DNA of 20,348 bases from a virus (IMGVR_UViG_2728369592_000008); one strand, 5' to 3'. Counted from the first letter of the stretch, positions 3,253 to 20,348 are shown. Program-made: numbers and translations. Notes: a model not told the origin generated them from the sequence alone.

Positions 3253-3456
3253 ATGGCTAATTACAATTCATTAATTCGTCTCTCTGAAGTTCAAAGGCGA
3301 ACTGGTTATAGCAAAGCATGGATTTATCGTCTTATTAGTCAGGGGAGGTTCCCTAAACAGGTAAAAATTGGAAGTCGGGCAATTGCTTTTGTTGAGTCTG
3401 AAATAGATGAATGGATTGAGAAGTGTATATTAGAATCTAGAGACGAGGTGGCCTGA
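3253..3456 (+). CDS. alpA: AlpA-family phage transcriptional regulator (small HTH DNA-binding protein)
   Basis: 67 aa; LIRLSEVQRRTGYSKAWIYRLISQGRFPKQVKIGSRAIAFVESEIDEWI is typical of AlpA / prophage CP4-57 regulator family; position right after the integrase. Confidence 0.8.
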   Translation: MANYNSLIRLSEVQRRTGYSKAWIYRLISQGRFPKQVKIGSRAIAFVESEIDEWIEKCILESRDEVA

Positions 3457-3887
3457 TGGAAAAGAAAAACCGCCCATTACAGGCGGCTAATTCAGATATT
3501 CGTGTATCTGATGTTACGCCCCTTACAAAATCCCTTCAAGCACCAAAGCGCACACCGAAAAAGCATCGTGCCAGAGTCTATATGCTGCGTACTGGTATAG
3601 AGGGATGGACAGAAAATGACATTCTTCGCTACTGCCGTCTGTCTTCTGGTCGTAACTATGCAACAGAGTTAGAACGCCAGCTTGGAATCACTCTGGAGCG
3701 TATCGACGAAAAGAATCCTGATGGTATCGGAACACACCTTCGCTACCGTTTCTCCTGCCGTGGTGATGTTCTGAAAGTGATCACTCATATTAACCATCTT
3801 GCGAACATAAATGATCACAACGGACTTTCTCAGCAGGAAATTGCCGACATTCTGAAACTCTACCCGGACGCGTTTAACGCCGCCTAA
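3456..3887 (+). CDS. Hypothetical protein (basic N-terminus); start overlaps the alpA stop
   Basis: 143 aa ORF, ATG overlapping the alpA TGA (translational coupling). No family recognised. Confidence 0.55.
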   Translation: MEKKNRPLQAANSDIRVSDVTPLTKSLQAPKRTPKKHRARVYMLRTGIEGWTENDILRYCRLSSGRNYATELERQLGITLERIDEKNPDGIGTHLRYRFSCRGDVLKVITHINHLANINDHNGLSQQEIADILKLYPDAFNAA

Positions 3888-3899
3888 CGGAGACTGAAA

Positions 3900-4733: not shown

Positions 4734-4908
4734 GCCAACAGGAACACCACAACCACAAAAACGCTACAAAGATGCCCACGGAGCACTCGTTACTGTCGAA
4801 AGCGTGTCTCACAACCGAGTGACGTTTTATCGCGACGGGTATCAATCGCCATGCGTACAACCGCTGGCGCGTTTCATGAAGGAGTTCGCGGAGGTTAACA
4901 AATGCTAA
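4726..4908 (+). CDS. Small hypothetical protein (60 aa)
   Basis: ATG at 4726 preceded by GGAGGTGG (4714-4721); it is the in-frame internal start of the listed 4639-4908 ORF and overlaps the end of the upstream gene. Confidence 0.45.
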   Translation: MSKPTGTPQPQKRYKDAHGALVTVESVSHNRVTFYRDGYQSPCVQPLARFMKEFAEVNKC

Positions 4909-5969
4909 CCGTCCAGAAGAAGACATTTTCACTGGCTGGTATGTCGCCAAAATCCAGCAATATGACGGCAAAGTCAGGCATTAATACCGCAGATACAAGC
5001 AAAGTTTATCATTTGCTGGTGGTCGGAACGGATGCCTTAACCATATCAGAAATCTCGGGCGATGATATTAGCATTGAGAAGGTCAGCGGCTGCGCCAGAA
5101 AATTTCTGGTCGTAGATGATGTCTTCCGCTCGTGTAGTGACTCCACAAAAACATTCGTCCACGCGCGTGACGTTAACGAAATGAGCGCGATGTACTGTGC
5201 ATCTGGTGCTTCCAATAGCGAGTTTTCGGAGTCCATAAAAAAGAGCTTGCCGTTATGCGGCAACACGGTTTATGGTTATAAGGCACCTCATAAAACGGGT
5301 GCCGGGATTGGCGTCCTGGTAAATCGAATGGCGACATATGACGCGCCGAGCGTCTTTTTTTATGTCGTAGGTCTGACTCACCCATTTTTTGGGCGTTGGT
5401 GTATAATCCAGCGCCTTTGTCAATCAATGGTGGCTCAGGCAGGGGCTTCTTCGGAAGCGCCGGTATCCATTCGAGCCGGTTACGCCAACCCTGTCTGGGC
5501 TACCACCAGCGAAATTGGCGTTTCCGGTGGTAGCGTTACATGCTATCGAATGGAGGCTGCCACATGCTGGCTACTACCCCTACCCAAAAACCGCAATTTA
5601 TCTGGATTATCGCCGCAGTTCGCCGCGATTGCCCGACAATTACCGCCAAAATTCATCATATTGCTGCCGAGTCTGAACGCGATGCTCGCCGTTCTCTGGT
5701 GCGCGATCACGTCTGCTTTTTTGCTGGTCGTATCCGCATGGAGGTGGCTCATGATTAAAACCTACGATGTGCATATGGATCCCCTCGAACGCACAAGCCA
5801 GATCATCACACTGACAGAAGTGATTAACGACATTCTGGTGAGCAACTCTCCCTCACGAGACGAAAGACTGAAGGCGTTACTCGCGATATTGGATCTCGCC
5901 GTTCGTGACGTTCATTTCCTGCTGGAAGGTGGCGAAATGCCAGGAAAAACGGGGGCAACCAATGAATAA
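4902..5969 (+). CDS. Unresolved ORF (355 aa as read); possibly a fusion artefact or overprinted region, with a likely independent 72 aa gene at 5751-5969
   Basis: Start at 4902 has a good RBS (GGAGG 4890-4894) and the frame stays open for 355 codons, but the middle section has atypical Ser/Cys/Trp-rich composition. An in-frame ATG at 5751 has its own strong RBS (GGAGGTGG 5740-5747). Confidence 0.3.
5564..5758 (+). CDS. Small hypothetical protein (64 aa), alternative frame nested in the 4902-5969 ORF
   Basis: ATG 5564 with GGAGG at 5552-5556; protein-like composition ([15 protein letters not shown]); stop overlaps the ATG at 5751. Conflicts with the 4902-5969 reading; only one model can be fully right. 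Confidence 0.35.
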   Translation: MLATTPTQKPQFIWIIAAVRRDCPTITAKIHHIAAESERDARRSLVRDHVCFFAGRIRMEVAHD

Positions 5970-6156
5970 CTCAATTAATACCCCTCGCCTTACGTCCGCA
6001 CTTCAATTAATCGAGCAAGCAGCGGCTGTCCTGGTTGCTGTCAGTCTTTCGGCTGAAGAAATGGACGCTGCTGATGTCGTGGATGCGATTAAAGCGTGCT
6101 CATCTTTGGTTAACGATGCCCGTGCCGAGCTGGTAATTCTTGGGGGTGAAAAATGA
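5962..6156 (+). CDS. Small hypothetical protein (64 aa)
   Basis: ATG 5962 preceded by a G-rich RBS, overlaps upstream stop; part of a chain of coupled small ORFs. Confidence 0.45.
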   Translation: MNNSINTPRLTSALQLIEQAAAVLVAVSLSAEEMDAADVVDAIKACSSLVNDARAELVILGGEK

Positions 6157-6416
6157 ATATCAACTTAATTTATCGTCATCCGTGTGAGCTGGAAATTGAA
6201 TCATTGCTGGGGCGTGAAGAGCCATATCCAGACACATTCACTCCCGCAGATTGCGCGACTGAACGGCTTACCAGAGCGCGCACAGGTCTGGTTCATGTGA
6301 TGAATGAGATTGTTCCCTCGGTGGGAGGGGAACAGGCGACAGTAATCAATAGCTGGCTACAAAAAGTTACCTCCCTGATAGATATCGGTTTAATCGATGT
6401 GGAGAGTGCGAAATGA
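6153..6416 (+). CDS. Small hypothetical protein (87 aa)
   Basis: ATGA start/stop overlap with the upstream ORF. Confidence 0.5.
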   Translation: MNINLIYRHPCELEIESLLGREEPYPDTFTPADCATERLTRARTGLVHVMNEIVPSVGGEQATVINSWLQKVTSLIDIGLIDVESAK

Positions 6417-6634
6417 CCAACATCCAGCTCATTGAAGCGCAATGTCGCATCGAACAGGTTCAGACTGTTTTAGGGTTCTGGCTTGAAGGGGCCAGCCCCA
6501 GCAACAGAGACAAGTTAATGATTGGCGCGGTTATGTCACTGCTTAATGGCGTACCAGAAGCTATTCAGGAAGCGGACGAATTGTTGGGCAAATATGAGTT
6601 ACAGAATCATTCAGGCGAGGCGAAACATGAATAA
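6413..6634 (+). CDS. Small hypothetical protein (73 aa)
   Basis: ATGA start/stop overlap with the upstream ORF. Confidence 0.5.
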   Translation: MTNIQLIEAQCRIEQVQTVLGFWLEGASPSNRDKLMIGAVMSLLNGVPEAIQEADELLGKYELQNHSGEAKHE

Positions 6635-7229
6635 TTTCTTAACTTTCCATGCAGAAGCAACGCCTGACGGCGTAAACATCATGTACCGCAGCAACGATGG
6701 CATGACAGAACGCGTTGAGGCCATCTCATATATTGATGCCGTAAATCGTCTGGATGCCGGGGATTATGACGATAAACCAGATGAAGGTATGTCAATACAT
6801 CTCGCTATTGCCGATGGCGGCAACCAGGGATATTTCGATTACACATCACAGCATAACGTCATTATGTGGAGATGGCTGATCGCAACAGTATTCATGCTGG
6901 AAATGAGAGAGGAAAACGGCACTGTCAGCATCATTGATGATACTGGCAATCCTTCCGAAGTGGCTGTTTATTCCAACGGCATCGTCGCCATGCCGCTGTA
7001 TCCAGTAGCAGAGCGCCTCGCTATGGCAAACAACATTGAGGGCGCGATGATAGAACGTTTTGGCATCGAGTCTGGCACAGAACGCGCCATCATTTTCTAC
7101 AGAGCCATGATGGATGTGGAACAAGGAGCACTGACTCCATTTGGTCGTGAAACGCTTGCTGAACTTCACAACAGCTTTATAGCTGAACTGAATGAAAACG
7201 GCATGCCAGCGGAACCAGTGACGCACTGA
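6627..7229 (+). CDS. Hypothetical protein (200 aa)
   Basis: In-frame ATG at 6627 overlapping the previous stop; the listed 6522 start would overlap the upstream gene by ~110 nt and is less likely. Confidence 0.5.
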   Translation: MNNFLTFHAEATPDGVNIMYRSNDGMTERVEAISYIDAVNRLDAGDYDDKPDEGMSIHLAIADGGNQGYFDYTSQHNVIMWRWLIATVFMLEMREENGTVSIIDDTGNPSEVAVYSNGIVAMPLYPVAERLAMANNIEGAMIERFGIESGTERAIIFYRAMMDVEQGALTPFGRETLAELHNSFIAELNENGMPAEPVTH

Positions 7230-7239
7230 GGATGGAGCC

Positions 7240-7581
7240 ATGATTACTAAAAATTTCCGACTGAATGCGCTGGCAAATAAGTATGCGTCGGCACTGTATA
7301 ACCACATTACCTCCACCAGCGGCGGGGACTATTTCATGGTTGATGCGGACGGCGAGGCCGTCCGTGTGGAAATCGTCAATGGAGTAAAAGGCGTTCGCAG
7401 CCTGATCGATAGCTACACACTGGCAGCCATGAAAGTGTTCTACCCGCAGTGGGAAACCGTGGGGATCGAGCTTCTTGAACGTTGCGTCACTAAGGACGGA
7501 TTGACTGACGTCGGGCGTGAGATATGGCAAAGCATGGTTAATGACATGGGCGCAACTGTAGCGGGAGGTTCTCATGCGTGA
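7240..7581 (+). CDS. Hypothetical protein (113 aa)
   Basis: ORF with GGATGGAG RBS upstream; co-oriented with neighbours. Confidence 0.5.
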   Translation: MITKNFRLNALANKYASALYNHITSTSGGDYFMVDADGEAVRVEIVNGVKGVRSLIDSYTLAAMKVFYPQWETVGIELLERCVTKDGLTDVGREIWQSMVNDMGATVAGGSHA

Positions 7582-7945
7582 AAATGCAGAAATGGCGCTT
7601 AGCTCCGCAATCGGAGAGCAGGTGGCAAAGATTGCTGGTGCTGTGTGGATTCATAACCTTCATTCTACTGGTGAAGAGAAAATGGTAATTCAGACGCCAG
7701 AGGGACGCACCATTACTACATCTCTGAAGCCGTCAGATGTTTGTGATCTGATTTGCGCATTCATGTACCCAGCAATGAGGACTGTCCACGGCGATAAGTG
7801 GAAACTTGCGACAACCGCTGAATTTGATATGTGGCTAAACAATGATGGCATGCTGACTGATTACGGAATAACCAAGTGGCAGATGCTGGTTAGCCATATC
7901 GCAAACGCTATAGACCACGTGGGGTACGGTGATGCGAAACATTGA
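7574..7945 (+). CDS. Hypothetical protein (123 aa)
   Basis: ORF with GGGAGG RBS; overlaps neighbours at both ends. Confidence 0.5.
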   Translation: MRENAEMALSSAIGEQVAKIAGAVWIHNLHSTGEEKMVIQTPEGRTITTSLKPSDVCDLICAFMYPAMRTVHGDKWKLATTAEFDMWLNNDGMLTDYGITKWQMLVSHIANAIDHVGYGDAKH

Positions 7946-10688
7946 TCTTATCCGTCAGGTTATCAGTGCGTCTGAAAACAACTGGCCTCATGTGCTGGGC
8001 TGCCTGAACATAAATGTCCCTGACTCTCCGCGCCGTCATGCTCCCTGCCCTGCATGTGGGGGCAAAGATCGATTCCGGTTCGATGACAACGGGCGCGGTA
8101 GCTTCATCTGTAATCAGTGCGGCGCTGGTGATGGGCTGGATTTAATTAAACGCGTAAATAACTGCGACACAACAGAGGCGGCGCTTCTTGCCGCTGATGT
8201 TCTGGGTATTGATTACCGGACAACGGAAACACCAGAAGCCACCAGCCAGAAACGGGAACAACTGGAAACCGAGCGCCAGCGACGCGAACAGGAGCGCCTG
8301 AAAAGGGCAGAGAAGGACGAACAACAAAGACGGGATACGTTTTCCCGTCAGTTTGATGACATGCGCAGAAAGGCTGTAAACGGCAAATCTGATTATCTGG
8401 TTGCGAAAGGGGTAGGTGATTTTACATTCCCCGTGTTGCCCGATGGATCTCTGTTGCTGGCGCTGGTGGATAAATCCGGCGCAGTAACAGCAGCACAGAC
8501 TATTACCTCACATGGTGAAAAAAGACTCCTGACAGGTTCAGCAAAGCGGGGGGCATATCACGCCATAAACGCACCAGAAACAACACAGAGCATCTTAATC
8601 GCAGAAGGTCTGGCAACGGCATTATCTGCCCATTTAATTCGTCCAGAGGCGCTGACAGTGGCGGCGATTGATGCCGGGAACCTGTTATATGTCGCCCAGG
8701 TACTGCGGGATAAATTTCCTTCAGCACAAATCATCATTGCTGCGGATAACGACCACAGCGAAGGAAGACAAAACACGGGGAGAATAGCAGCAGAAAAAGC
8801 AGCTTTATCTGTTTCTGGATGGGTGGCATTACCCCCGACAGATCACAAAGCAGACTGGAATGATTACCACCAAAAACACGGCATTAAATGCGCCACAGAA
8901 GCGTTCAATAAGTCAATGTACCAACCACAGGGTAATGGCGTGAAACAGGAGCCACAGACCATTGAGGGAAGCGATTTTAAGGTTATGGATACCGACCCAC
9001 TGAAACCAAGAATAGAAAGCCGCGAGGATGGTATTTATTGGGTATCTCCGAGAGCTGACAGCCAGAGTGGAGAAATCATCAATAACGAAAGCTGGTTATG
9101 TTCTCCGTTAAGCGTTATCGGTACTGGCAGAGACGATAAAGACCAGTATCTCATTCTTCGCTGGCTGTCGTTTGGTTCTGAAACGCCGACAACCGCTGCC
9201 ATTCCACTGGCTGATATTGGTGAACGTGAAGGATGGCGCACACTTAAAGCTGGTGGGGTAAATGTCACGACCAAAAGCAGCCTCAGAGCAATACTGGCAG
9301 ACTGGCTACAACGCAGTGGCTCTCGTGAATTGTGGCGTGTTGCTCATGCCACTGGCTGGCAATGCGGAGCGTACATCATGCCTGATGGGGAAATCATCGG
9401 AACACCTGAAAATCCTGTGCTGTTCAGCGGGAGAAGCTCAGCCGCAGCCGGATATACCGTCTCAGGGAGCGCGAAAAGCTGGCGTGATAACGTGGCGCGT
9501 CTGGCCTTTGGTAACTATTCAATGATGACCGGGATCGGCGCAGCACTGGCAGCGCCATTGATTGGGCTGGTGGGCGCTGACGGGTTCGGCATTCATTTCT
9601 ATGAGCAGTCGAGCGCAGGTAAGACCACCACGGCAAACGTGGCGAGCAGCTTATACGGCAACCCTGATTTACTGCGGCTGACGTGGTACGGAACCGCGCT
9701 GGGGCTGGCAAATGAGGCCGCCGCCCACAATGACGGACTAATGCCGCTTGATGAAGTTGGTCAGGGCGCTGATCCTGTCAGCGTTTCACAGTCTGCCTAT
9801 GCGTTATTTAACGGTGTAGGGAAACTGCAAGGCGCTAAAGATGGTGGAAACCGGGATCTAAAACGCTGGCGTACAGTGGCAATCAGCACCGGAGAAATGG
9901 ATTTAGAAACATTTATCGCTACTTCCGGGCGAAAAACCAAAGCCGGGCAACTGGTGCGACTGCTGAATATTCCGTTGAGTAAAGCAGTACGCTTTCACGA
10001 TTACCAGAACGGAAAACAGCACGCAGACGCACTGAAAGACGCTTACCAGCATCACCACGGCGCGTCCGGGCGTGAGTGGATTAAATGGCTGGCACACCAC
10101 CAGCAACAGGCTATTAAAACCGTTCGTGATTGCGAAAGCAGATGGAGAAGCCTGATCCCATCCGATTATGGTGAGCAGGTTCACCGTGTAGCCGCGCGAT
10201 TTGCCATTCTAGAGGCCGCATTGTTGTTAGGCGAGGTTGTAACAGGCTGGGATGCTCAGACATGCCGTGATGCGATACAGCACAGCTATAACGCATGGTT
10301 GCGCGAGTTCGGCACAGGTAACAAAGAGCATCAGCAGATTATTGAACAAACGGAGGCATTTCTTAATGCCTATGGGCTTAGCCGTTTTGCACCATTTCCA
10401 TACAGCCCGGCAGATTTGCCCATCAAAGATTTAGCCGGATACCGTCAGCGTGGAGAACATGACGAAAGCCCAATGATTTTCTACACATTCCCGGCCACAT
10501 TTGAAAAGGAGATCGCATGTGGTTTCAACGCAAAACAGTTTGCTGAAGTGTTGAAAAAAGCCGGGATGCTAACCCCACCAAACAGCGGTCGTGGATACCA
10601 AAGAAAATCACCACGTATTCAGGGACGACAAATAAACGTTTATGTACTCAATTACCAGCCAGGAGATTATAACTCATCTGAAGAATGA
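7932..10688 (+). CDS. Phage/satellite primase-helicase (zinc-ribbon + Toprim primase + P-loop NTPase)
   Basis: ~918 aa. Cys-rich zinc-binding motif PCPACGGKDRFRFDDNGRGSFICNQCG; Toprim-like acidic motifs (IAEGLATALS, IIIAADNDHSEGRQNTG); Walker A SSAGKTT near nt 9610. Architecture as in P4 alpha-like replication proteins. ATG 7932 preferred over the GTG at 7929. Confidence 0.85.
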   Translation: MRNIDLIRQVISASENNWPHVLGCLNINVPDSPRRHAPCPACGGKDRFRFDDNGRGSFICNQCGAGDGLDLIKRVNNCDTTEAALLAADVLGIDYRTTETPEATSQKREQLETERQRREQERLKRAEKDEQQRRDTFSRQFDDMRRKAVNGKSDYLVAKGVGDFTFPVLPDGSLLLALVDKSGAVTAAQTITSHGEKRLLTGSAKRGAYHAINAPETTQSILIAEGLATALSAHLIRPEALTVAAIDAGNLLYVAQVLRDKFPSAQIIIAADNDHSEGRQNTGRIAAEKAALSVSGWVALPPTDHKADWNDYHQKHGIKCATEAFNKSMYQPQGNGVKQEPQTIEGSDFKVMDTDPLKPRIESREDGIYWVSPRADSQSGEIINNESWLCSPLSVIGTGRDDKDQYLILRWLSFGSETPTTAAIPLADIGEREGWRTLKAGGVNVTTKSSLRAILADWLQRSGSRELWRVAHATGWQCGAYIMPDGEIIGTPENPVLFSGRSSAAAGYTVSGSAKSWRDNVARLAFGNYSMMTGIGAALAAPLIGLVGADGFGIHFYEQSSAGKTTTANVASSLYGNPDLLRLTWYGTALGLANEAAAHNDGLMPLDEVGQGADPVSVSQSAYALFNGVGKLQGAKDGGNRDLKRWRTVAISTGEMDLETFIATSGRKTKAGQLVRLLNIPLSKAVRFHDYQNGKQHADALKDAYQHHHGASGREWIKWLAHHQQQAIKTVRDCESRWRSLIPSDYGEQVHRVAARFAILEAALLLGEVVTGWDAQTCRDAIQHSYNAWLREFGTGNKEHQQIIEQTEAFLNAYGLSRFAPFPYSPADLPIKDLAGYRQRGEHDESPMIFYTFPATFEKEIACGFNAKQFAEVLKKAGMLTPPNSGRGYQRKSPRIQGRQINVYVLNYQPGDYNSSEE

Positions 10689-10710
10689 GCTTCTTCATGT
10701 GCGTAGAAAA

Positions 10711-10828
10711 GGTGTTGGTTCAGTTGGTTCAGTTGGTTCAATTTGTAAAGTGTATTGTTTTATAAGGATTTTATTCTTTTTATTGAACCAACACTGAACC
10801 AACAACACGGTATTTTGAACCAACACAA
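10711..10828 (+). repeat. Iteron cluster, putative origin of replication (three direct GTTGGTTCA repeats, AT-rich spacer, three inverted copies)
   Basis: GGTGTTGGTTCAGTTGGTTCAGTTGGTTCA at 10711-10740, AT-rich 10751-10781, then TTGAACCAACA-type repeats at 10782-10828; immediately downstream of the primase stop. Confidence 0.65.
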
Positions 10829-10874
10829 TGTGACTGAATTGATGCGCACAACACCTGGCTGGCATCAGAGAGTG

Positions 10875-10950
10875 TTTTACGAGACTTTCGTAAAATCCTG
10901 TGTACAAGGGCGTGACGTTTTTGAAAGTGAGCACTACGAAATTTTCGTAG
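10875..10950 (+). promoter_or_regulatory. Two palindromic sites sharing a TACGAAA/TTTCGTA half-site
   Basis: TTTTACGA-N5-TCGTAAAA at 10875-10895 and the perfect palindrome CTACGAAA-T-TTTCGTAG at 10934-10950. Confidence 0.4.
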
Positions 10951-11143
10951 TTCAAAAAACAGCCTCTGAGAAGTTGTTATGCCTGTTCAGCAAACCATCC
11001 GCATAGCTGATCGCGAATCAAATTACCAATGGAGCCAGAAGCAAGGGCAGAACTGAAAAGCGCCTGCCGTGAAGAGTAATGCGACACCATAAATATAGTT
11101 TTTAGAGTCCATAAAAAACCTGTCAAAACCTGACACACAGAAC

Positions 11144-11177
11144 GATGCCACCAGCTACTGAGCGGTGGCATTTTTTT
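11144..11177 (+). terminator. Rho-independent terminator closing the primase transcription unit
   Basis: Stem TGCCACC (11146-11152) / GGTGGCA (11164-11170) followed by TTTTTTT (11171-11177). Confidence 0.65.
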
Positions 11178-11273
11178 GTGCTATTTGTTTCATATTTTGC
11201 AATTACTATGATGAATATTGCGATTTGTGAAACTATAATAACTGTTGTTTTATACAGTTCTAAGGGGGGCGTT

Positions 11274-11435
11274 ATGGCTATTTCAGTAAAGCCGGTATTG
11301 ATAAGTGAGAAGCAAATGGAAGCGATAAAGAAAATTCAGGAAGAGCAGCGTAAAAAATCAGGAATTGGAGTAGCGCCAACTCTGCATGAAATTGCACGAG
11401 GGTTAATAGATAAGGCGCTGGCAGGCTGTATGTGA
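11274..11435 (+). CDS. Small hypothetical protein (53 aa), first gene of the cargo operon
   Basis: ATG 11274 preceded by AAGGGGGG; the listed longer ORF (from 11145) would read through the terminator and is rejected. Confidence 0.45.
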   Translation: MAISVKPVLISEKQMEAIKKIQEEQRKKSGIGVAPTLHEIARGLIDKALAGCM

Positions 11436-11451
11436 AAATGGATGGCATCGC

Positions 11452-11913
11452 ATGGAACTAAAATTTATTGATAACCCTGTGCGATTACAGGCCTTTCTTA
11501 ACGAGCCAGGCAATACCGAAAATATTGTTGAGCCGGGGCACACGTACTACATCAAGCCTGATGCGGTATATCTCGGCATCTACGAAGGATTGGTGCTGGC
11601 TGGCGTTCATGAAGTGCGTAACTTCTGGCATAGCATTGTTGAATGCCATGCGGTGTACGACCCCGGATTCCGTGGTGAATATGCACTGCAAGGGCATCGA
11701 TTATTCTGCAAATGGCTTCTCGAAAACTCACCATTCCTTAACAGCATTACCATGGTTCCTGACACCACCAAATACGGACGGGCAATTATCCGTTTGCTTG
11801 GCGCTACCCGTGTTGGTCACCTTGATGATGCTTATATCAGATGTGGTAAACCCGTCGGCGTAACGCTTTATCAGTTAACTCGGCAACAATATAAGGAATT
11901 CAGCGAATGTTAA
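11452..11913 (+). CDS. Hypothetical protein (153 aa); possibly a P22 gp14-like virion protein by position
   Basis: ORF directly upstream of, and overlapping, the next gene; the call is by position and size only. Confidence 0.5.
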   Translation: MELKFIDNPVRLQAFLNEPGNTENIVEPGHTYYIKPDAVYLGIYEGLVLAGVHEVRNFWHSIVECHAVYDPGFRGEYALQGHRLFCKWLLENSPFLNSITMVPDTTKYGRAIIRLLGATRVGHLDDAYIRCGKPVGVTLYQLTRQQYKEFSEC

Positions 11914-12584
11914 TTACCCACATAGCTCATAAACATCTCAATCGTGCCGTATACGAAAAAGGCGGTGATGGTGGTGCCTCTAAAGCTCAGGCGAAGGCCC
12001 AGCAGCAGGCAATTGATTTGCAGCGCGAGCAGTGGAATACGGTGATGAATAATCTCAAGCCGTATGCAGAAGTCGGATTGCCTGCTTTACAACAACTACA
12101 AGGACTGATGACTCTGGAAGGGCAGAATAAAGCCGCGAATGATTTCTTTGGTTCTGGTTTATATAAAACACAGGCAGATCAGGCCCGTTATCAGAACCTT
12201 GTCTCAGCAGAAGCTACCGGGGGGCTTGGCTCAACAGCTACCAGTAACCAGTTATCTTCCATTGCGCCCATGCTTTATAACAATTGGCTTAGTGGGCAAA
12301 TGCAAAATTATGGAAACCTGCTAAATGTCGGGATGAATGCGGCATCAGGGCAGGCAACAGCAGGGCAAAACTACGCCAATAATACCGGGCAACTCTTGCA
12401 GGGGCTTGGCGCTATTCGTGCAGGTCAGGCGCAGCAGCCATCCAGTCTTGCGCGTGGTATTGGTGGGGCGGCATCAGGCGCTTTAGCGGGTGCGCAACTT
12501 GGTTCCGTTGTTCCGGGTATAGGTAATGTCGCCGGGGCTATTGGTGGTGGGCTTATTGGTCTTGTTGGGGGGCTTGGATTCTAA
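11907..12584 (+). CDS. Gly/Gln-rich protein with C-terminal glycine-zipper hydrophobic tail; possibly P22 gp7-like ejection protein
   Basis: 225 aa; RBS AAGGAA; C-terminus GIGGAASGALAGAQLGSVVPGIGNVAGAIGGGLIGLVGGLGF; size and position match the first ejection protein of P22-like phages (from memory). Confidence 0.5.
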   Translation: MLITHIAHKHLNRAVYEKGGDGGASKAQAKAQQQAIDLQREQWNTVMNNLKPYAEVGLPALQQLQGLMTLEGQNKAANDFFGSGLYKTQADQARYQNLVSAEATGGLGSTATSNQLSSIAPMLYNNWLSGQMQNYGNLLNVGMNAASGQATAGQNYANNTGQLLQGLGAIRAGQAQQPSSLARGIGGAASGALAGAQLGSVVPGIGNVAGAIGGGLIGLVGGLGF

Positions 12585-14005
12585 TGGCGACATGGCAACT
12601 TGGCGGGCTGCCTAGCATGGCACCGCAAAATGATAATGCTCCTCGTTCTTCCGTTCCTCAGCCTGTGCAGTATCAGCAGCAGCCAAACGTAGGTTTAATG
12701 GCGCTACAGGGGCTAAGAGGCGTTGCTGAGATTAATCAGCAGGCACGTCAACAACAGCGTAAAGCAGAGTTTCAGAAAGCATATGCCGGGGCTTTTGAGT
12801 CTGGAGACAGAAACAAAATGCGCAGTCTTATTTCTGAGTATCCAGAAGAATTTGAAAGCGTTCAGAAAGGGATGGGCTTTATTGATGACGACCAGAGAAA
12901 TTCTATTGGTCATCTTGCGACTAGTGCTCAAATCGCATCTTCGCTCGGAACTGGGGCATTTGGAAAATTCATAGCAGATAACGAAGATGAAATGCGTCGC
13001 TTGGGAATTTCTCCTGAGTCTGTTGCCGAAATGCATGTTAATGATCCACAGGGATTCCAGCGGCTTGCTGGTAGTATGGCACTGTTTTCTCTCGGTCATG
13101 AGAAGTATTTCGATATCAAAGATCAAATGGAAGGTCGGGATATTGAGCGTGGCAAGTTGGCAGAAACAATCCGCAGCAATCAGGCTGGCGAAGCACTTCA
13201 GGCGAGAGGGCAGGATATTAGCCGAGCAAATGCGTTAACGTCAGCATATGCACCAACAGCAGCAATGCAGAATTACAATCAGTACGCTCAAATGTTAAAG
13301 GAGGATCCAGAGGGGGCGGCGGCATTTGCGGCAGCGGCTGGAATTAATACAAACGCCAAAAAATTAATGAGTGTTAGAGAAAACGATGATGGCACTGTCA
13401 CAAAATACTACACAGACGGAAGTGAAGAGCAGGGAAAACTAAACCAGCCAATATCTGGAGATGGGTTTCGTCCAATAGCTTTGCCAACAGCCCAAAAGAT
13501 CATGGAAAAGTCGCCAGAAGGGGCTAAAAAAGCTGCTGGATTTGCATACAGGGTTAGGGATGCTCTTGATTCAATAGATACACTGAAAGACCAGCTTAGC
13601 CCACAGCGAGTGGCGATCATTAATAATGCTTTGGGTAATGGGACGCTGGCTAACTTAACGCTCAGCCCAACAGAGCAGCAATACGTTGTTAATGCTAATG
13701 ACGCAATAATGGCAATACTCCGTCAGGAAACAGGGGCAGCTATCGTACCTGCTGAAATGTCAAAATATTATCAAATGTATTTCCCTCAGCCTGGCGACTC
13801 CACAAAAACCATTGATACCAAGCGCCGGAAGATGGAAAACCAGTTCAATTCGCTGAAAGCTGCTTCTGGTCGAGCTTATGATGCTTTGCGGGTTATTTCA
13901 GCAGTTGACAGAGGAACTTCTTCTTCGTCGCAGACATTGCCGCAATCTGAGCAGGTATCACAGCCAGCAGCCAGCAGTAACTTTTCTTCACTATGGGGTG
14001 ATTAA
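12584..14005 (+). CDS. Hypothetical protein (473 aa); possibly P22 gp20-like DNA-transfer/ejection protein
   Basis: ATG overlaps upstream stop (TAATGG); size and order consistent with the middle ejection protein of P22-like phages. Confidence 0.5.
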   Translation: MATWQLGGLPSMAPQNDNAPRSSVPQPVQYQQQPNVGLMALQGLRGVAEINQQARQQQRKAEFQKAYAGAFESGDRNKMRSLISEYPEEFESVQKGMGFIDDDQRNSIGHLATSAQIASSLGTGAFGKFIADNEDEMRRLGISPESVAEMHVNDPQGFQRLAGSMALFSLGHEKYFDIKDQMEGRDIERGKLAETIRSNQAGEALQARGQDISRANALTSAYAPTAAMQNYNQYAQMLKEDPEGAAAFAAAAGINTNAKKLMSVRENDDGTVTKYYTDGSEEQGKLNQPISGDGFRPIALPTAQKIMEKSPEGAKKAAGFAYRVRDALDSIDTLKDQLSPQRVAIINNALGNGTLANLTLSPTEQQYVVNANDAIMAILRQETGAAIVPAEMSKYYQMYFPQPGDSTKTIDTKRRKMENQFNSLKAASGRAYDALRVISAVDRGTSSSSQTLPQSEQVSQPAASSNFSSLWGD

Positions 14006-16110
14006 TGGCTAAAGCATGGAAAGATGTTATCGCCTCTCCACAGTATCAGGCGTTAGCACCAGAACAAAAAGCGCAGGCTCAGGAGCAATACTTCAATGAA
14101 GTCGTTGCCCCGCAAGCCGGAGAAAGTGTAGAGCAGGCTAAGCAGGCTTTTTATGCTGCCTATCCACTACCATCAACGAATGAAATAGACCGAGCCCAAT
14201 CAGCAACTCAAAATATTCAACATACATCATCTGATAATTCTCTTGCGTCAGGGTATGCAAAGTTAGCTACTCAGCAAAGAGAGGGGCTTGAGCGTTCAGC
14301 AGAACAGGGAGCCAGCCTTGGGGCTGCGATGCGCGATGCTATAACAGGCGAAAGCCGAATGACTCCAGAGATGGAGAGACTGCAAAATGTCGACCTTGCC
14401 CCAGAGTTAACCTCACTCAGCATGGATGCTCTAAAAGCTCGATGGTCTCAACTTTTCGGCTCTGACGCATCTCAGGAAAAGATTCTTCAGAGCATGGGAG
14501 CGAAATTAAGGCAGGATGAGAAGGGTAACACTATCGTTTCCCTGCCATCCGGTGATTATGCTCTGAACAAGCCGGGTTTATCGCCGCAAGACGTGGCATC
14601 GTTTCTGGCTAATGCGCTGGCGTTTACACCAGCGGGCAGGGCCGGAACGGTGCTGGGGGCCATAGGGAAATCAGCAGCTACAGATTTAGCACTACAGGGA
14701 GCCACCAGCCTCGCTGGTGGAGAAGATATTGATCCGTTACAAACGGTAATTTCTGCTGGCATTGGTGGTATTGGTAAGGGGCTGGAAAATACAGCGAGTG
14801 CGGTTTCGAGGGCTGTTCGTGGTGATATGTCGCCTGAAGCAAAGGCTGCTGTCGACTTTGCATCGGAAAGAAATCTGCCGTTAATGACCAGTGACATGCT
14901 GAAAGATAAAACCTTTATGCAGAGTCAGGCTCAGACATTAGGCGAAAGAGTTCCTTTTTTTGGAACCGGTAAGAATCGGCTGAATCAACAACAAGCACGA
15001 GAAAATTTAGTCAGAACATTTAGCGATGGTCTGGGTGGCATTTCTGATAAACAGCTTTATGAATCTGCGACTAAAGGGCAACAAAAATTCATTGAGGCAG
15101 CAGGAAAGCGATATAACCGCATAATTGACGCTATGGGGGATACCCCTGTCGATCTCTCAAACACGGTAAAAGCTATCGACAATCAGATTGCTGTGTTAAG
15201 CCGCCCGGGTAAATCTCAGGATAGAGCCGCGGTAAAAGTCTTGCAGCAATTTAAAGACGATATCACCAGCGGACCAAATGACCTGCGTCTGGCGAGGGAA
15301 AACAGAACCGATCTTCGAAAGCGGTTTATGGCGTCATCTGACACTGTTGATAAAGATACGCTCCAGAAAGCCAGCGATATTATCTACAAGGCATATACGG
15401 CGGATATGAAAAAAGCCGTAGCCAAAAATCTTGGAGCAGACGAAGCCATTAATATGGCAAGGGTTGATCGCTCATGGTCTAAATTCAATGACATGATGGG
15501 AAGAACGCGCGTTCAAAAGGCAATAGCCAGCGGCAAGGCCACGCCTGAGGATGTAACAAAACTCGTTTTTAGCCAAAGCCCATCAGAACGTTCTCAGCTT
15601 TACAGGCTTCTGGATGACAATGGTAGGCAAAACGCACGAGCAGCCATAGTTCAGAATGCTGTAGATAAGGCGACTGATCCGTCTGGAAATATCAGTGTTG
15701 AGAAGTTTATTAATGCGTTACACCGGAACAGGAAGCAATCAGCAACTTTCTTTAAAGGCGTACATGGAAAGGAACTGGACGGCGTTATTAAATACCTCAA
15801 CGATACAAGACACGCGGCAAAAGCGAACGTTCAAAACTTAAATGGTCAGCAGCTTTATGGATTGTTAGTTGGTGGTGGCATCATAAACGCAGCAGTATTA
15901 GCGGGGATGCTAAAAACGGCTGCGTTTGTTGTTCCTGCTGCTGGTGCCGTAGGCGGAGCCGCGAAGGCATACGAAAGCCCTGTTATACGAAATGCCTTGT
16001 TACGTTTGGCAAATACGCCAAAAGGTAGCACAGCATATGACAGAGCGATCAGTACGGTCACACAATCGCTCACCAGAGTCGCACAGGCATCACAAAAAGA
16101 AGCTCAATAA
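14005..16110 (+). CDS. Hypothetical protein (701 aa) with C-terminal hydrophobic hairpin; possibly P22 gp16-like DNA-transfer/ejection protein
   Basis: ATG overlaps upstream stop; Ala/Gln/Lys-rich; hydrophobic stretch LLVGGGIINAAVLAGMLKTAAFVVPAAGAVGGAA near the C-terminus. Confidence 0.5.
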   Translation: MAKAWKDVIASPQYQALAPEQKAQAQEQYFNEVVAPQAGESVEQAKQAFYAAYPLPSTNEIDRAQSATQNIQHTSSDNSLASGYAKLATQQREGLERSAEQGASLGAAMRDAITGESRMTPEMERLQNVDLAPELTSLSMDALKARWSQLFGSDASQEKILQSMGAKLRQDEKGNTIVSLPSGDYALNKPGLSPQDVASFLANALAFTPAGRAGTVLGAIGKSAATDLALQGATSLAGGEDIDPLQTVISAGIGGIGKGLENTASAVSRAVRGDMSPEAKAAVDFASERNLPLMTSDMLKDKTFMQSQAQTLGERVPFFGTGKNRLNQQQARENLVRTFSDGLGGISDKQLYESATKGQQKFIEAAGKRYNRIIDAMGDTPVDLSNTVKAIDNQIAVLSRPGKSQDRAAVKVLQQFKDDITSGPNDLRLARENRTDLRKRFMASSDTVDKDTLQKASDIIYKAYTADMKKAVAKNLGADEAINMARVDRSWSKFNDMMGRTRVQKAIASGKATPEDVTKLVFSQSPSERSQLYRLLDDNGRQNARAAIVQNAVDKATDPSGNISVEKFINALHRNRKQSATFFKGVHGKELDGVIKYLNDTRHAAKANVQNLNGQQLYGLLVGGGIINAAVLAGMLKTAAFVVPAAGAVGGAAKAYESPVIRNALLRLANTPKGSTAYDRAISTVTQSLTRVAQASQKEAQ

Positions 16111-16128
16111 CTGGTAGCCATGGATGGC

Positions 16129-16743
16129 TTAGATATCTCTGCTGTCTCCATTAGGAAATAAAAGATAATATGGATTTGCCTTTCTTGCTCTCCTTGCTTC
16201 ACCTGGATACCTGTTAGTCAGTAGTTTGCATAATGAGCAGAGAACAACACTCAAGAAAATTCCGAATGAGAAGATCAATATCTCACCAAAAATCAATGGC
16301 GATATTAAATTTTCAGGATTTAATGATAAGTCAATGTTAAAAACATATTGAGCAATACCAGTAAGTATCAATAATATAATCCCTATGGAATACATTGCTG
16401 TTTCCCAAACATCAGACAGTCTATTTTTGAATTGTTCGCTGGAGTAGTAGTTTGTTATAAAGTCAGAAAAATCACTCTCATATGCATCATCTTTAGGTGA
16501 TGTTAGAAATCCTCTGTCTCTCCATACCTTCTCCCAATTAGTCGATTCTTTTTTTAAGGAAAAATAAATATGTATTGCCAAAAGGATAGCCAAAATTGGT
16601 GTTAGCTCTAAAAAATAGAATGTTATGGAATAAATAATACTGCCATGTTCAAACTCATCTGGGACTATCATGTATGCACAAAAATAAATTGAAAAGTACA
16701 CCATGCAGATAGTTAGCAATTCTTTAGTATCTTTTCTGCTCAC
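16129..16743 (-). CDS. AT-rich polytopic inner-membrane protein (about four predicted TM helices); candidate superinfection-exclusion or defence effector
   Basis: 204 aa, GTG start with AAGGGGG RBS; hydrophobic segments at roughly aa 9-27, 36-61, 116-135, 147-176; visibly lower GC than flanking genes; convergent with the upstream operon. Confidence 0.55.
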   Translation of the reverse strand: MSRKDTKELLTICMVYFSIYFCAYMIVPDEFEHGSIIYSITFYFLELTPILAILLAIHIYFSLKKESTNWEKVWRDRGFLTSPKDDAYESDFSDFITNYYSSEQFKNRLSDVWETAMYSIGIILLILTGIAQYVFNIDLSLNPENLISPLIFGEILIFSFGIFLSVVLCSLCKLLTNRYPGEARRARKANPYYLLFPNGDSRDI

Positions 16744-16960
16744 ACCAACCCCCTTTAGCGTTGTTTAGAATGGCAATCATCATATATCCAAGACATGGCA
16801 TTTGGTACATAGCTTGGGTCGGGATTTCAAATCCGATCCCCGTTGATGGGGCCGTTACAGTACGCGCATATCCGCTTTATGTGAAACAGGAAGATTTTTC
16901 TGATATCACTGCCACAGCAAAACACCAATTTCGTGACCAGTACGCGCGCGAGGGGTATCA

Positions 16961-16979
16961 GTTGCAAAAATTTTGCAAC
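16961..16979. promoter_or_regulatory. Perfect 19 bp palindrome GTTGCAAAA-A-TTTTGCAAC flanked by GACCAGTACGC direct repeats
   Basis: Palindrome at 16961-16979; GACCAGTACGC at 16934-16944 and 16987-16997; related CAGTACGCGC motifs near 16858 and 17225. Confidence 0.45.
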
Positions 16980-17612
16980 TACGTCCGACCAGTACGCACA
17001 CGATGGCGGGGGATACCATGAAACTGTTCTCTACACGAGACAGAGTGGTGGTGATGTGTTGATTATCGGCGTATATGCGCACAGGACGCGCTATGACGAT
17101 GTTTTATGCGGGTACACCAATCACATGTATCTGATGTGATAAATCGTGTTACATGACATCTCATGTTGTGCTGGTGGTTATCACGACGTTCTGAATCTGG
17201 CCTTTGCCTGATATTTTGCGACAAGTACGCGCGCGTAGCATCGAAATTATCGGATGGCGTATGCTGCTGGCAATATGAAGACCGATAGTATTAACCGAAA
17301 AGCGATTAAGGAGTGCCAACTTTTCAGTAGAGAAACTAGCCAGCATAGGAAAATGTAGAAATTACCCAATTAATAGGTAAAAGTTATTGACACAGCCTGT
17401 AGTGGATAACGATATGAATAAAAACCACATATAGTGGTTTTTCGTGAGTGATGATAGTATCTATGTTAGTTTCCTAAGTAACTGTGCATTGACATGTGGA
17501 TAACTTCGGATAGAGTTACAGGCAACCGAGCCCGATCCTCTGTTTCTCCGCCGCCGATTTCAGGCATGTGAGTTTCACGGTCGGGCCTTTTATTATCTTT
17601 TGTTTCGCCACT

Positions 17613-18590
17613 ATGATTGCCGCAAAGCCTCATAAGGACTATCACGAATTGCTAGGATTGCTACTTGAACGTGGCATGATTATCAATGATCGAAATCGTG
17701 CGATACGTAAGCTGTCGCAGGTTGGATATTATCGATTGTCAGGTTTTTGGTACCCATCAAGAATTATTGCGACAACAGATAAAGGTCTTTCGTACAGAAC
17801 AGACCGATTTCTTGCTGGTACCAGTTTCGAGAAGACGTACGATCTATATCTTTTTGACAAAAAACTGCGTCTTTTGATGATTGATGCTATCGAAAGAATA
17901 GAGATTCATGTTCGTTCAGTCATCGCGCATGAGGTTGGTCGCAATGATCCACTTGCCTACATGTCATCAAAATACATTAATCCAAAATTCTCATCTGCCT
18001 TCGAGCATTGGGTGTATAAGCAAAAAGTAAAATTAGACGAAAGCAGAGATGACTGTATTGAATGGCATCGAAGCCAAGGCAAGGAGATTCCATTTTGGGT
18101 GGCGGTGGAGACCTGGGATTTTGGTCAGATGTCTAAATATTATGCGATGCTTAATGGTCATATGCAGGGGAAAATTATACGTCGTTTTGGCATTGATAAT
18201 AAGCAGACATTTGCAAAATGGTTGAAGTGCCTTAATCTCATAAGGAATCGTTGCGCTCACCATTCCAGAATATGGAATAGAAAGCATCCCCGAGTTCCAG
18301 TACCGGATAATGAATACTTTGACGGACTTAATCTCCATCCAGAGAGTTGCGAGAGGATTTTTAGCGCGATCTGTATTATCTGGTACTTAGTTAAACGACT
18401 TGGTCCGGGATCAACATGGCTTCGGCAAATTGCAGACCTTATTGACTCTAAACCAAATGTTCCCGGATGTGGATATGATTCAATGGGTTTACCTGCTAAA
18501 GGATTCCCACGAGAGAGATTCTCTCAGGACTTAGGTTTTGTTATCGCCGACAACGACCCTGTAGCTGAAGGGCGGAAAGGGAGCGATTGA
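17613..18590 (+). CDS. Abi_2-family abortive infection protein (AbiD/AbiF-like)
   Basis: Signature stretches match the family: KPHKDYHELLGLLLERGMIINDRNRAIRKLSQVGYYRLSGFWYP, LYLFDKKLRLLMIDAIERIEIHVRSVIAHEV, LIRNRCAHHSRIWNR. ATG 17613 preferred; the listed 17568 start adds 15 hydrophobic residues. Confidence 0.8.
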   Translation: MIAAKPHKDYHELLGLLLERGMIINDRNRAIRKLSQVGYYRLSGFWYPSRIIATTDKGLSYRTDRFLAGTSFEKTYDLYLFDKKLRLLMIDAIERIEIHVRSVIAHEVGRNDPLAYMSSKYINPKFSSAFEHWVYKQKVKLDESRDDCIEWHRSQGKEIPFWVAVETWDFGQMSKYYAMLNGHMQGKIIRRFGIDNKQTFAKWLKCLNLIRNRCAHHSRIWNRKHPRVPVPDNEYFDGLNLHPESCERIFSAICIIWYLVKRLGPGSTWLRQIADLIDSKPNVPGCGYDSMGLPAKGFPRERFSQDLGFVIADNDPVAEGRKGSD

Positions 18591-18619
18591 GCGATAAATA
18601 TCATTTATACACTGATCAA

Positions 18620-19060
18620 TTACTGAAGCAGCGTATTGATTCTTTTAATATTGTTACCCTGACGCTTCCACGCGCTGTAAATGTCTTTATCCCACGCTTT
18701 ACCAGCTTTTGTTTGGTAGCCTGCTTCATTGAGCCGTTCCGCTATCACACGCCCATTATCAAATCCCTGTCGGATGGTATCGGCAATGATCTTTATAACT
18801 GCCGTTTCGTTATATGGCTTTGGTGGGATGTTCGGCTTTCCGGCAATAAGCGACGCAGCGGCTTTTTCCATGCGCTCCACCAGCCCAAGCATTCGTGAAT
18901 CAATAGACTTTTCCGGCTGTCCCAGCTTCATGCGAATCGCATCAACAAGCCAGGAGGTTTTATCCCCTCCAGAAGCGAGAACAGACCGATTAAACTCATC
19001 CTGCAATTCAGATGGGATGCGGAACGCGACCAGATTAGATTTGCTCATTGCAAAGACCAT
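18620..19060 (-). CDS. Ribbon-helix-helix DNA-binding protein with C-terminal recombinase-type (catalytic-domain-less) DNA-binding module
   Basis: 146 aa; N-terminal SNLVAFRIPSELQDEFNRSVLASGGDKTSWLVDAIRMKL fits an RHH fold; C-terminal IADTIRQGFDNGRVIAERLNEAGYQTKAGKAWDKDIYSAWKRQ resembles the DNA-binding 'recombinase' domain of large serine recombinases. No clear RBS; start could be 19048. Confidence 0.55.
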   Translation of the reverse strand: MVFAMSKSNLVAFRIPSELQDEFNRSVLASGGDKTSWLVDAIRMKLGQPEKSIDSRMLGLVERMEKAAASLIAGKPNIPPKPYNETAVIKIIADTIRQGFDNGRVIAERLNEAGYQTKAGKAWDKDIYSAWKRQGNNIKRINTLLQ

Positions 19061-19077
19061 ATCAGTGAGTAATATCC

Positions 19078-19109
19078 ATACAGTATACCACTGTATAACA
19101 CTGTTATAC
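19078..19109. promoter_or_regulatory. Overlapping palindromes upstream of the RHH gene (candidate autoregulatory operators)
   Basis: ATACAGT-ATACC-ACTGTAT (19078-19096) and GTATAACA-C-TGTTATAC (19093-19109). Confidence 0.45.
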
Positions 19110-19157
19110 GCTCAAATATCAGCCAGAAAATAACGGACCAATCACAAAGCTATCGCT

Positions 19158-19286
19158 GTGTTGTTGGTTCAGAGCTGGGCTGTGTTGGTTCAAAATGAGT
19201 TGATGTTGGTTCAATATTTCAGAAAAAACACAATAAAAACAACGATCTTTACAAATTGAACCAACTGAACCAACTGAACCAACACC
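19158..19286 (-). repeat. Second iteron cluster, inverted copy of the ori cluster (crr-like cis replication site?)
   Basis: 19247-19286 is the exact reverse complement of the 40-mer at 10711-10750; three further TGTTGGTTCA copies at 19162-19215 across an AT-rich spacer. Confidence 0.6.
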
Positions 19287-19319
19287 TTTTTGCTTATCTA
19301 TATAATCTGAGAGGCAGAA

Positions 19320-19607
19320 ATGATAAGGGACAGGAAAGCTGAAGAACTGGAGTCAAAAGGGCTATACCGGAGAGCTGCCGCACGATGGGCAGAAGTCATG
19401 ATGCTGGCAGATGGCGATAAAGAACGTGAACATGCAGCAAACAGACGCTCTGAATGTATCCGTAAGGCGGCACGCCCACCAGCAACTACAGACAGATTCG
19501 GAGATTTAAGACAGGCAGTTAAGCGGACTCATTCGGCTCTTGGTATGGATGAGGAAGCGAGAGGGTATTTCAGGCGTTATCGCGATAAAGATTGCCAGAG
19601 ACAGTAA
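19320..19607 (+). CDS. PerC-family transcriptional activator-like protein
   Basis: 95 aa; N-terminal RKAEELESKGLYRRAAARWAEVM resembles PerC/Pch family activators carried on prophages; RBS GAGAGG upstream. Confidence 0.55.
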   Translation: MIRDRKAEELESKGLYRRAAARWAEVMMLADGDKEREHAANRRSECIRKAARPPATTDRFGDLRQAVKRTHSALGMDEEARGYFRRYRDKDCQRQ

Positions 19608-19868
19608 TGCTCTCTCTGTTTTGGCAAATTACCCCTCACTTTGAAGGGATCGGAGCTATAAAAATGGTGTTATCCGGCTTCCTGCATTGCAGGTTTTCGA
19701 AAGAATCAATGGGTTAGGTTATCGTGCAAATTTGCACTCTGCCAGCCAACGCAATTTCTCGTTGGCGGAAATATCAGGTATTTACTGAACGAACGGTCTA
19801 CCCGCCTGTTCAACTACCAGTTGTACATGGCTGCTTTATGTGCAAATGGTGGTGAGAGAAAATTGTTT

Positions 19869-19888
19869 GGGGGTACTTTTGGGGGTAT
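19869..19888 (+). repeat. GGGGGTACTTTTGGGGGTAT motif near attR, near-identical to the int-proximal motif at 1559-1578
   Basis: 19 of 20 positions identical to GGGGGTACTTATGGGGGTAT (1559-1578); both lie ~70-115 bp inside the island ends in the same orientation. Confidence 0.5.
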
Positions 19889-20348
19889 CTCCAAAGATGT
19901 AACTGGAAAATGTCTTTATATATCAATGTATTTTTATTGTTTGTTTTGTTCCTATTATCGCACCATTTAAATCAATAAGTTATCTCACATTTAAGTAAAC
20001 TACGTTCTCCTCTTGTGCCTTTGATTTTGCTCGCGTGCGCGGTGAAATGCCTGACTGAAAGGTGAGCATATCGACGAACCATTTCGAGAGTTTCCCATCT
20101 GCTCATTTTTAAGTGCAAGCAGGAAAACACCGGACTAAACCAATCAGCTGTTCGAAAATGGCAAGCGGATTAATATGCCATGGCGGGGCAGCTTTGAGCC
20201 GCACGCATGGGGTGTGGCAAGCCTGATGGATTTTGCTGTGCCTGTGGTGGCGTGTTTGCTGGTTTGGCTGTTGGTTAAACGCGAAAGTCATAATGCCAGG
20301 GGAATACCGCAGGGTGTTCAGGTTTTGCATAAAAAAGCCCACCATTAA

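Follow-up and report, generated by a model that had tools for sequence, protein, structure and literature searches.

An iteron cluster beside perC as the probable second lobe of a Pri-Rep origin split by cargo in a PICI-like satellite of Escherichia coli

The thrW island described here carries two iteron clusters in mirror-image orientation: lobe A, which follows the primase-helicase (Pri-Rep) gene, and lobe B, which lies beside perC at the far end of an accessory module. We consider that lobe B is probably the second lobe of a two-lobed Pri-Rep iteron origin that has been split by the cargo module, analogous to the crr/ori pair of P4, and that it works in replication. That lobe B would be a Rep-binding part of the replicon, whatever its exact task, is very likely, judging from its sequence. 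A two-lobed origin is favoured because the 12 exact iterons, against 0.17 expected, exclude chance; because the word shared by both lobes co-varies with the C-terminal domain of the helicase; because lobe B is under purifying selection across 12 loci; because a swap of the helicase module brings new iterons, again in two inverted lobes; and because lobes 2 of split loci keep origin-like spacers, with P4 and SaPIs as precedents and with homology of the protein to PDB entry 8tch.

Results

The satellite and its surroundings

The window (the whole 20,348-bp stretch that was analysed, IMGVR_UViG_2728369592_000008) opens with proA, followed by the gene for tRNA-Thr(cgt) at 1369-1444, in the 3' end of which the island starts (Table 1). 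Its left part holds, in this order, the integrase gene, alpA, antA, an ash-family ORF, small ORFs and the primase-helicase gene, as assigned by Pfam, PADLOC and PHROGs. A solved structure, PDB 8tch ("pathogenicity island protein"), resembles residues 402-813 of Pri-Rep (E 1.8e-11). Gram-negative PICIs are described by Fillol-Salom 2018 (PMC6092414) as having the order int-alpA-...-pri-rep-ori, and some as carrying perC. In the island, int, alpA, pri-rep and ori likewise run in one direction from a specific att site, and the 18.5 kb fall within the PICI range of ~10-20 kb.

Table 1. Features of the island and its two lobes (positions in the window, except in the last row)
Feature	Position	Strand	Remarks
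Whole island, PICI-like satellite, E. coli thrW	1428..19967	+	18.5 kb
attL core TCCTATTATCGGCACCATT	tRNA-Thr(cgt) 3' end		imperfect copy = attR TCCTATTATCG-CACCATT at ~19951-19967
Arm-type repeats TGGGGGTACTT(A/T)TGGGGGTAT	1558-1578 and 19868-19888
Tyrosine integrase gene	1610-2824		Pfam
Pri-Rep primase-helicase gene	7932..10688	+	918 aa; zinc ribbon, Toprim and DUF927 domains (Pfam)
Lobe A	10707..10827		tandem GTTGGTTCA x3 10714-10740; spacer 10741-10783; phased TGAACCAAC 10784, 10795, 10816; TGAACCAAC sites by strand: 10714/10723/10732 (-), 10784/10795/10816 (+)
CCTGGCTGGCA motif	10854..10864	+	~30 bp beyond lobe A
Accessory module between lobes	11274..19060		Pfam, PADLOC, PHROGs and LS45 RefSeq annotation
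Small ORF o53	11274-11435		53 aa; head of accessory module
P22-like gp14, gp7, gp20, gp16 genes	11452-16110
Weakly SieA-like ORF	16129-16743	-
AbiD abortive-infection gene, cargo	17568-18590		PADLOC E 8e-58
o146m, regulator-like ORF	18620-19060	-	146 aa
Lobe B	19158..19290		phased GTTGGTTCA 19163, 19184, 19205; spacer 19214-19256; tandem TGAACCAAC x3 19257-19283; TGAACCAAC sites by strand: 19163/19184/19205 (-), 19257/19266/19275 (+)
Longest exact inverted match	19247..19290		44 bp; reverse complement of 10707-10750
TTATCTATATAAT, TTATATATA-like motif	19294..19306	+	~12 bp outside lobe B tandem iterons, 14 bp upstream of perC start
perC-family regulator gene	19320..19607	+	directly outside lobe B; Pfam PerC E 2.6e-33
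GC-rich short lobe-2 spacer of relatives	~220-260 bp after rep stop		L005, L006, L007, L010, L011, L013, L019, L023, L034, L041, L047

E. coli LS45 has an annotated island identical to this one, with yagU as its right flank. There the island does not stand directly beside proA/thrW but is preceded by Arc, a truncated tailspike gene and other genes of a P22-like prophage remnant (L001 1-4216), a layout which suggests that thrW is occupied in tandem by a possible helper type. Indirect hints at a helper phage are found on both sides of this border, in the P22-like ejection genes of the island and in the P22-like remnant beside its LS45 copy. Of 5,426 complete E. coli genomes, 586 contain a match to the primase-origin region, typically at two places (median) and at no more than 6; related islands occupy other sites as well, next to yicC and at a tRNA-Ser gene.

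Two Rfam families score above their gathering thresholds on the plus strand of the island, isrK (67 bits, 5283-5360) and the C4 antisense RNA (79.5 bits, 5423-5510). Both matches sit within an "ash family protein" ORF (4902-5969), at a place where relatives have an icd-like gene, and they suggest an antisense-RNA immunity region of the P1/P4 type. An element of ~100 nt upstream of isrK (5147-5242) recurs where the cargo operon begins, just beyond lobe A (10892-10961, 11097-11118); the parts common to both copies are GCGTGACGTT..TGAAA.TGAGC and AGTTTTCGGAGTCCATAAAAAA, and the two may be paralogous promoters or leaders.

Anatomy of the two lobes

The exact word TGAACCAAC occurs 12 times in the 20,348 bp, all 12 copies lying inside the two clusters; shuffled sequences gave 0.17 copies on average and never more than 2, so that none of 100 shuffles reached 12. 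Both lobes consist of three tandem iterons at 9-bp spacing, a 43-bp spacer and three phased iterons in the opposite orientation, lobe B being the mirror image of lobe A. The spacers are AT-rich (84% in lobe A, 79% in lobe B). The phased iterons follow each other at 11 and 21 bp in lobe A versus 21 and 21 bp in lobe B, so that the lobes differ here by a helical turn. Lobe A starts 26 bp past the rep stop codon, and ~8.4-8.5 kb separate it from lobe B.

The sequence-only reading had described a second, inverted cluster with a perfect 40-bp match to the origin, as well as conservation of the AT-rich spacer and of three single iterons. All of this is real, and the exact match extends to 44 bp, comprising the tandem iterons and the conserved flanks TTTACAAAT (19248-19256) and CACCTTTT. 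A repeat finder returned 55-nt arms at 93% identity and a 38-nt arm at 82%. The same reading let the clusters bracket the whole cargo; they do enclose all other accessory genes, but perC lies just outside lobe B.

As single-stranded DNA, lobe A folds at -27.5 kcal/mol (z -6.5) and lobe B at -23.5 kcal/mol (z -3.0); since the iterons stand head-to-head, this hairpin potential is trivial and we do not use it as evidence. Rfam found no known RNA at either lobe at gathering scores. A permissive search gave only far-sub-threshold matches to miRNA precursors, caused by the palindromic iterons, and a known RNA at the lobes was therefore rejected.

Selection rather than gene conversion

When 12 B lobes from different genera are aligned, the iterons, TTTACAAAT, the TTATATATA-like motif and the 43-bp length of the AT-rich spacer are kept, while the sequence of the spacer and the flanks drift. 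Over the 100 nt beside the tandem block, A lobes of different genera are 65-87% identical and B lobes of different genera 68-79%, versus 57-64% for A and B of the same genome. Because identity within one type across genera exceeds that between A and B within a genome, the two lobes are old paralogues with separate orthology; and since the same motifs recur in the B lobes of other genera, the 44-bp identity marks a constrained core. Selection or recent gene conversion had been offered as alternative explanations of the perfect match. The sequence comparison argues for the former, and recent A-B conversion was rejected, as lobes A and B of one genome are less alike outside the tandem block than B lobes are across genera.

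The iteron word follows the C-terminal domain of the helicase

Eight variants of the word (GTTGGTTCA, GAGACAACA, AACGGGTTA, GTCGGTTCA, AAACCGACC, ACCCGACCT, ATAACCCAC and ACTTATCCC) were found in ~55 replicons, and at two-cluster loci the word was identical in both clusters in every case seen. When the tree is built from the C-terminal 140 aa of the helicase, proteins with the same class of word group together, the single exception being L023, with a word that is one base different; a tree of the whole protein shows no such grouping. The C-terminal domain of Pri-Rep is thus presumed to be the reader of the iterons. This co-variation fits what is described for SaPI Reps, in which a C-terminal winged-helix domain reads the iterons and which are thought to load two hexamers round an AT-rich centre (PMC9371898, PMC7581432).

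Helicase swaps and orphan lobes

An island with the same backbone, but with a DUF5906 helicase module in place of the DUF927 one, is present in 140 E. coli genomes. The breakpoint of the swap lies inside the primase-helicase gene and leaves the N-terminal primase domain in place (L002 8759-12360; L003), and the N-terminal primase domains of both types of protein read the same in alignments with P4 alpha. The DUF5906 module brings iterons of its own (CCTGTACCACCTATACCA-like), arranged as two inverted clusters 1 kb apart that flank two small ORFs; having two lobes is therefore a layout that more than one helicase family uses.

Upstream of perC, islands of the DUF5906 type retain an orphan lobe B (L002, at 19355-19395; L121, L122, L123, L124, L003 and L125). 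Among these seven sampled orphans, two are intact (L003, L125), two have one mutated iteron and three are cut to two iterons, whereas all six iterons of lobe B are intact in the five islands with a cognate helicase. Damage in 5/7 non-cognate versus 0/5 cognate islands points the way one would expect but is suggestive only, the sample being small and three of the five damaged lobes sharing an allele. The intact lobes of L003 and L125, which stand beside a non-cognate helicase, mean that lobe B can persist without its Rep in cis; such an orphan may reflect a recent swap, action in trans with a co-resident island or a Rep-independent role.

Adjacent and split lobes in relatives

A primase-helicase scan with one genome per species gave 77 loci, ~55 of which, all from Enterobacterales, had a locatable rep stop codon and downstream DNA and were usable. 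In the commonest state (~29 loci), both lobes stand back to back in the first 300 bp after the rep stop, in the order tandem iterons, AT spacer, phased iterons and then phased iterons, spacer, tandem iterons. The split state comprises 13 loci including the window, with lobes 0.3-9.0 kb apart and accessory genes between them; in the ten kb-scale splits checked, the cargo lies between the phased-iteron ("dispersed") sides. Another 11 loci show a single lobe in the 10 kb of DNA retrieved for each. These stretches contain neither an att site nor an arm repeat, so the ends of these islands lie beyond them, which makes these loci uninformative rather than contrary. Both arrangements also occur among IMG/VR contigs.

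On the helicase tree, adjacent and split states are interspersed, and the lobes have therefore been separated or rejoined repeatedly. The window itself is sister to an adjacent-type Enterobacter locus, and two Lonsdalea britannica loci with rep genes 93% identical nevertheless differ in state, 5.86 kb separating lobe 1 from the tandem part of lobe 2 in this pair. The CCTGGCTGGCA motif is found between the two lobes in adjacent-type relatives (compared: L005, L025, L010, L023, L017 and the E. coli islands), and its copy just beyond lobe A can for this reason be taken to mark the left breakpoint of the split.

What lies between split lobes varies from locus to locus: the window has P22-like ejection genes and AbiD there, and relatives have SLT-domain injection proteins, tape-measure proteins, SoFic and a P4 Beta-like protein. 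A homologue of o53 usually leads the inter-lobe cargo, and a homologue of o146m stands at its other end, just inside lobe 2, at seven split loci (L014, L021, L022, L027, L061, L062 and the window). Two mapped adjacent-type loci, L005 and L023, have the same kind of cargo downstream of both lobes. Overall, the proposal that the clusters mark the boundary of an inserted module is supported in a refined form, with the cargo placed inside a split origin, as relatives have their lobes either adjacent or separated by differing cargo; the stricter expectation that cargo always sits between two clusters in related islands proved false, given the ~29 relatives with adjacent lobes.

The spacer of lobe 2 differs with the state of the locus. 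It is 43 bp long and 72-88% AT at all ten kb-scale split loci checked, whereas at 11 adjacent-type loci (Table 1, last row) it is 34-36 bp long and GC-rich, with 28-41% AT. Where lobe 2 is on its own, it has the look of a complete origin in every case. In the 11 adjacent-type relatives, lobe 2 need not be the site of melting, because its spacer is short and GC-rich. The lobe-2 spacers of L005, L010 and L023, the three inspected, have a GGCGCGG core in common despite different iteron words, and this spacer type may be a binding site for another factor.

Two further observations concern individual loci. In Yersinia pekkanenii (L035 8154-14214), three copies of the double-lobe origin occur in 6 kb, one of them within a stretch that matches the primase-helicase, which suggests that the 3' end of rep and the origin were duplicated. 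Genes for virion DNA ejection are present in the satellite of the window (11274-16743), and the same position in L021, L022, L056 and L061 is taken by SLT-domain injection or TMP_3 tape-measure proteins; this suggests a helper-matched injection module typical of the satellite family.

Sequence features on the perC side

The divergent genes o146m (-) and perC (+) are 260 bp apart, and lobe B occupies this gap. The TTATATATA-like motif next to it, which is kept in adjacent-type relatives as well as in the 12 aligned B lobes, has in TTATCTATATAAT a possible -10 region; a consensus sigma-70 scan found no promoter at lobe A or lobe B, TTATCTATATAAT included, and a terminator scan found none at lobe B. 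Between the start of o146m and lobe B, at 19080-19109, there are three 10-bp repeats (ACAGTATACC, ACTGTATAAC, ACTGTTATAC), which could be an operator. The N-terminus of o146m, MSKSNLVAFRIPSELQDEFNRSVLASGGDKTSWLVDAIRMKL, resembles a ribbon-helix-helix regulator by eye, with no significant Pfam family.

Comparison with P4 and with SaPI/PICI origins

The alpha protein of P4 binds both ori and crr, and crr is needed in cis. In the P4 GenBank record, crr (4291-4590) adjoins the 3' end of alpha and is made up of a pair of 120-bp direct repeats with five type-1 repeats each, while ori (9086-9809), with six type-1 repeats, is 4.7 kb away. The island shares this logic: one iteron region follows the 3' end of the initiator gene, and another with the same iterons lies kilobases off, with genes in between (4.7 kb in P4, ~8.4 kb in the island). 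Each P4 unit is moreover built from two iterons at 9-bp spacing, a gap of ~35 bp and then iterons of the opposite orientation. The primase domain of Pri-Rep is a homologue of that of alpha (33% identity over 359 aa, E 2e-41), but only the first ~360 aa of Pri-Rep align with alpha, the helicase of which is of the D5/DUF5906 type, in contrast to the DUF927/SaPI-Rep-like helicase of the island. A DUF5906 helicase is present in two sister islands, L002 and L003, where it is accompanied by different iterons. P4 also differs in having three units, with crr as direct repeats, against two single, inverted units in the island, and in most relatives of the island the units are adjacent. Pfam and PHROGs scans of the island ORFs found none of the P4 genes sid, psu, delta and epsilon.

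It had been suggested from the sequence that the two clusters are an ori and a cis-replication region as in P4, bound by an alpha protein. The first part has gained support, as the same word is present in both clusters, the word follows the C-terminal domain of the helicase and the P4 record displays the same logic; as to the second part, the initiator is not an alpha protein, its primase domain alone being alpha-like and its helicase resembling DUF927 proteins and SaPI Rep.

The replication origin of SaPIs and PICIs is said to have been the subject of work by Ubeda in 2007. It is described as an AT-rich centre with at least two iterons per side in opposed directions (PMC9371898, Qiao 2022), located directly downstream of the rep ORF (PMC9371898, PMC6092414). 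Both lobes show the opposed iterons, three per side, round an AT-rich centre that this definition (PMC9371898) asks for; lobe A also lies directly after the rep ORF, and lobe B, beside perC, does not. The resemblance may extend to the protein, the C-terminal domain of SaPI Rep being the reader of iterons and the C-terminal 140 aa of Pri-Rep being the part with which the island's word co-varies. The difference is that the text of PMC6092414 and of PMC9371898 describes one unit beside rep, versus a mirror pair of A and B here, up to 9 kb apart. In the PICI EcCICFT073, which is not the island of the window, the rep gene and the region just downstream sufficed for plasmid replication (PMC6092414); for this reason, the distant lobe may be dispensable.

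Discussion

Under the two-lobed reading, we would expect Pri-Rep to bind both lobes via its C-terminal domain after induction and excision, the AT-rich spacers to melt and the self-loading helicase to be loaded. The lobes might then act together in one of two ways, either by initiating at two sites with opposite polarity, or as an origin and a cis-acting partner that communicate via protein-mediated looping, as is held for P4 alpha with ori and crr. Since both lobes are conserved, they may in addition serve as passive homology arms, at which the cargo block would be exchanged or lost by recombination between related satellites. It is tempting to go further and to suppose that both lobes are working origins of opposite polarity, and that the gap between them is a dedicated dock for helper-matched ejection/tape-measure and defence modules, which would be swapped by recombination in the lobes; the cargo arc might be copied first or over-amplified on induction, and orphan lobes could let the Rep of a co-resident satellite replicate or jam a satellite. 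To this extended scenario we give only a low probability.

Lobe B might instead serve chiefly as an operator at which Rep acts on divergent promoters of perC and o146m, which would couple expression to replication and leave it little role in initiation. Its place in the gap between these two genes would suit such a function, as would the TTATATATA-like motif just outside the tandem iterons in all B lobes, the GC-rich lobe-2 spacers of many adjacent-type loci, which are unsuited to melting, and the persistence of the unit of lobe 2 and perC, which is kept in the adjacent-type L005, where perC follows lobe 2, and survives the replacement of the helicase in L003 and L125. However, perC follows lobe 1, not lobe 2, in L014, L022 and L027, no sigma-70 consensus promoter was found at lobe B, and the 43-bp AT-rich spacer and six iterons that lobes 2 keep at split loci go beyond the needs of an operator, so that we regard this explanation as unlikely. 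More doubtful still is a negative role in copy control or incompatibility, in which lobe B would titrate or handcuff Rep in the manner of P1 incA, and thereby limit the replication of its own satellite or sequester the Rep of competitors. A pair of clusters with identical Rep-binding repeats, placed near rep or on either side of it, is indeed the classical layout of iteron plasmids such as P1 (oriR/incA), F and RK2, where the cluster outside the origin acts negatively, and control by titration or pairing is conceivable here. Orphan lobes B do persist beside a different helicase, and related islands are commonly co-resident, at up to 6 places in one E. coli genome. Nevertheless, the second cluster of those plasmids is built of direct repeats and lacks an AT-rich centre, whereas lobe B mirrors the whole origin with its complete anatomy; and a satellite needs burst replication after induction, for which self-limitation is not obviously useful.

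The two other candidates are highly improbable. The sequence-only reading had proposed that the lobes are recombinogenic inverted repeats by which the 8.5-kb segment flips, as a programmed or frequent switch, and a perfect inverted repeat of 44 bp would indeed suffice for occasional RecA-dependent inversion. We searched all complete E. coli genomes with a synthetic junction of a flip between the 44-bp repeats, and none of the 553 matching genomes contained the inverted junction at ≥80% coverage (best coverage 58%). All 11 E. coli islands retrieved have their cargo in one and the same orientation relative to rep, the island genes include no detected invertase or resolvase, and in the relatives with adjacent lobes there is nothing to flip. 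Flipping is thus largely refuted at the level of assemblies. As for a dead relic, that is, the leftover origin of a degraded second satellite fused with the island, it is true that tandem and mosaic islands occur at thrW and that helicase modules swap between islands. Yet no helicase remnant lies beside lobe B, B-type lobes with intact iterons are conserved across genera, and most relatives have lobe 2 beside lobe 1, downstream of one rep gene; on this conservation and the adjacent arrangement the relic was rejected.

Satellites of the PICI type are described with one origin beside rep, whereas the present family of Enterobacterales, found in about a tenth of complete E. coli genomes, has two mirror units. 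If both units are needed, assays and minimal replicons that contain only the region after rep would miss half the origin, the long-standing P4 ori/crr puzzle could be studied in another natural system, independent of P4 and much more variable, and the lobes would explain where and how cargo such as anti-phage genes and virion ejection proteins is exchanged among satellites. If lobe B is dispensable, the result would be comparative anatomy and little more. The main value of the finding lies in the natural series of adjacent, split and orphan lobes that this family offers for probing the role of a second iteron region.
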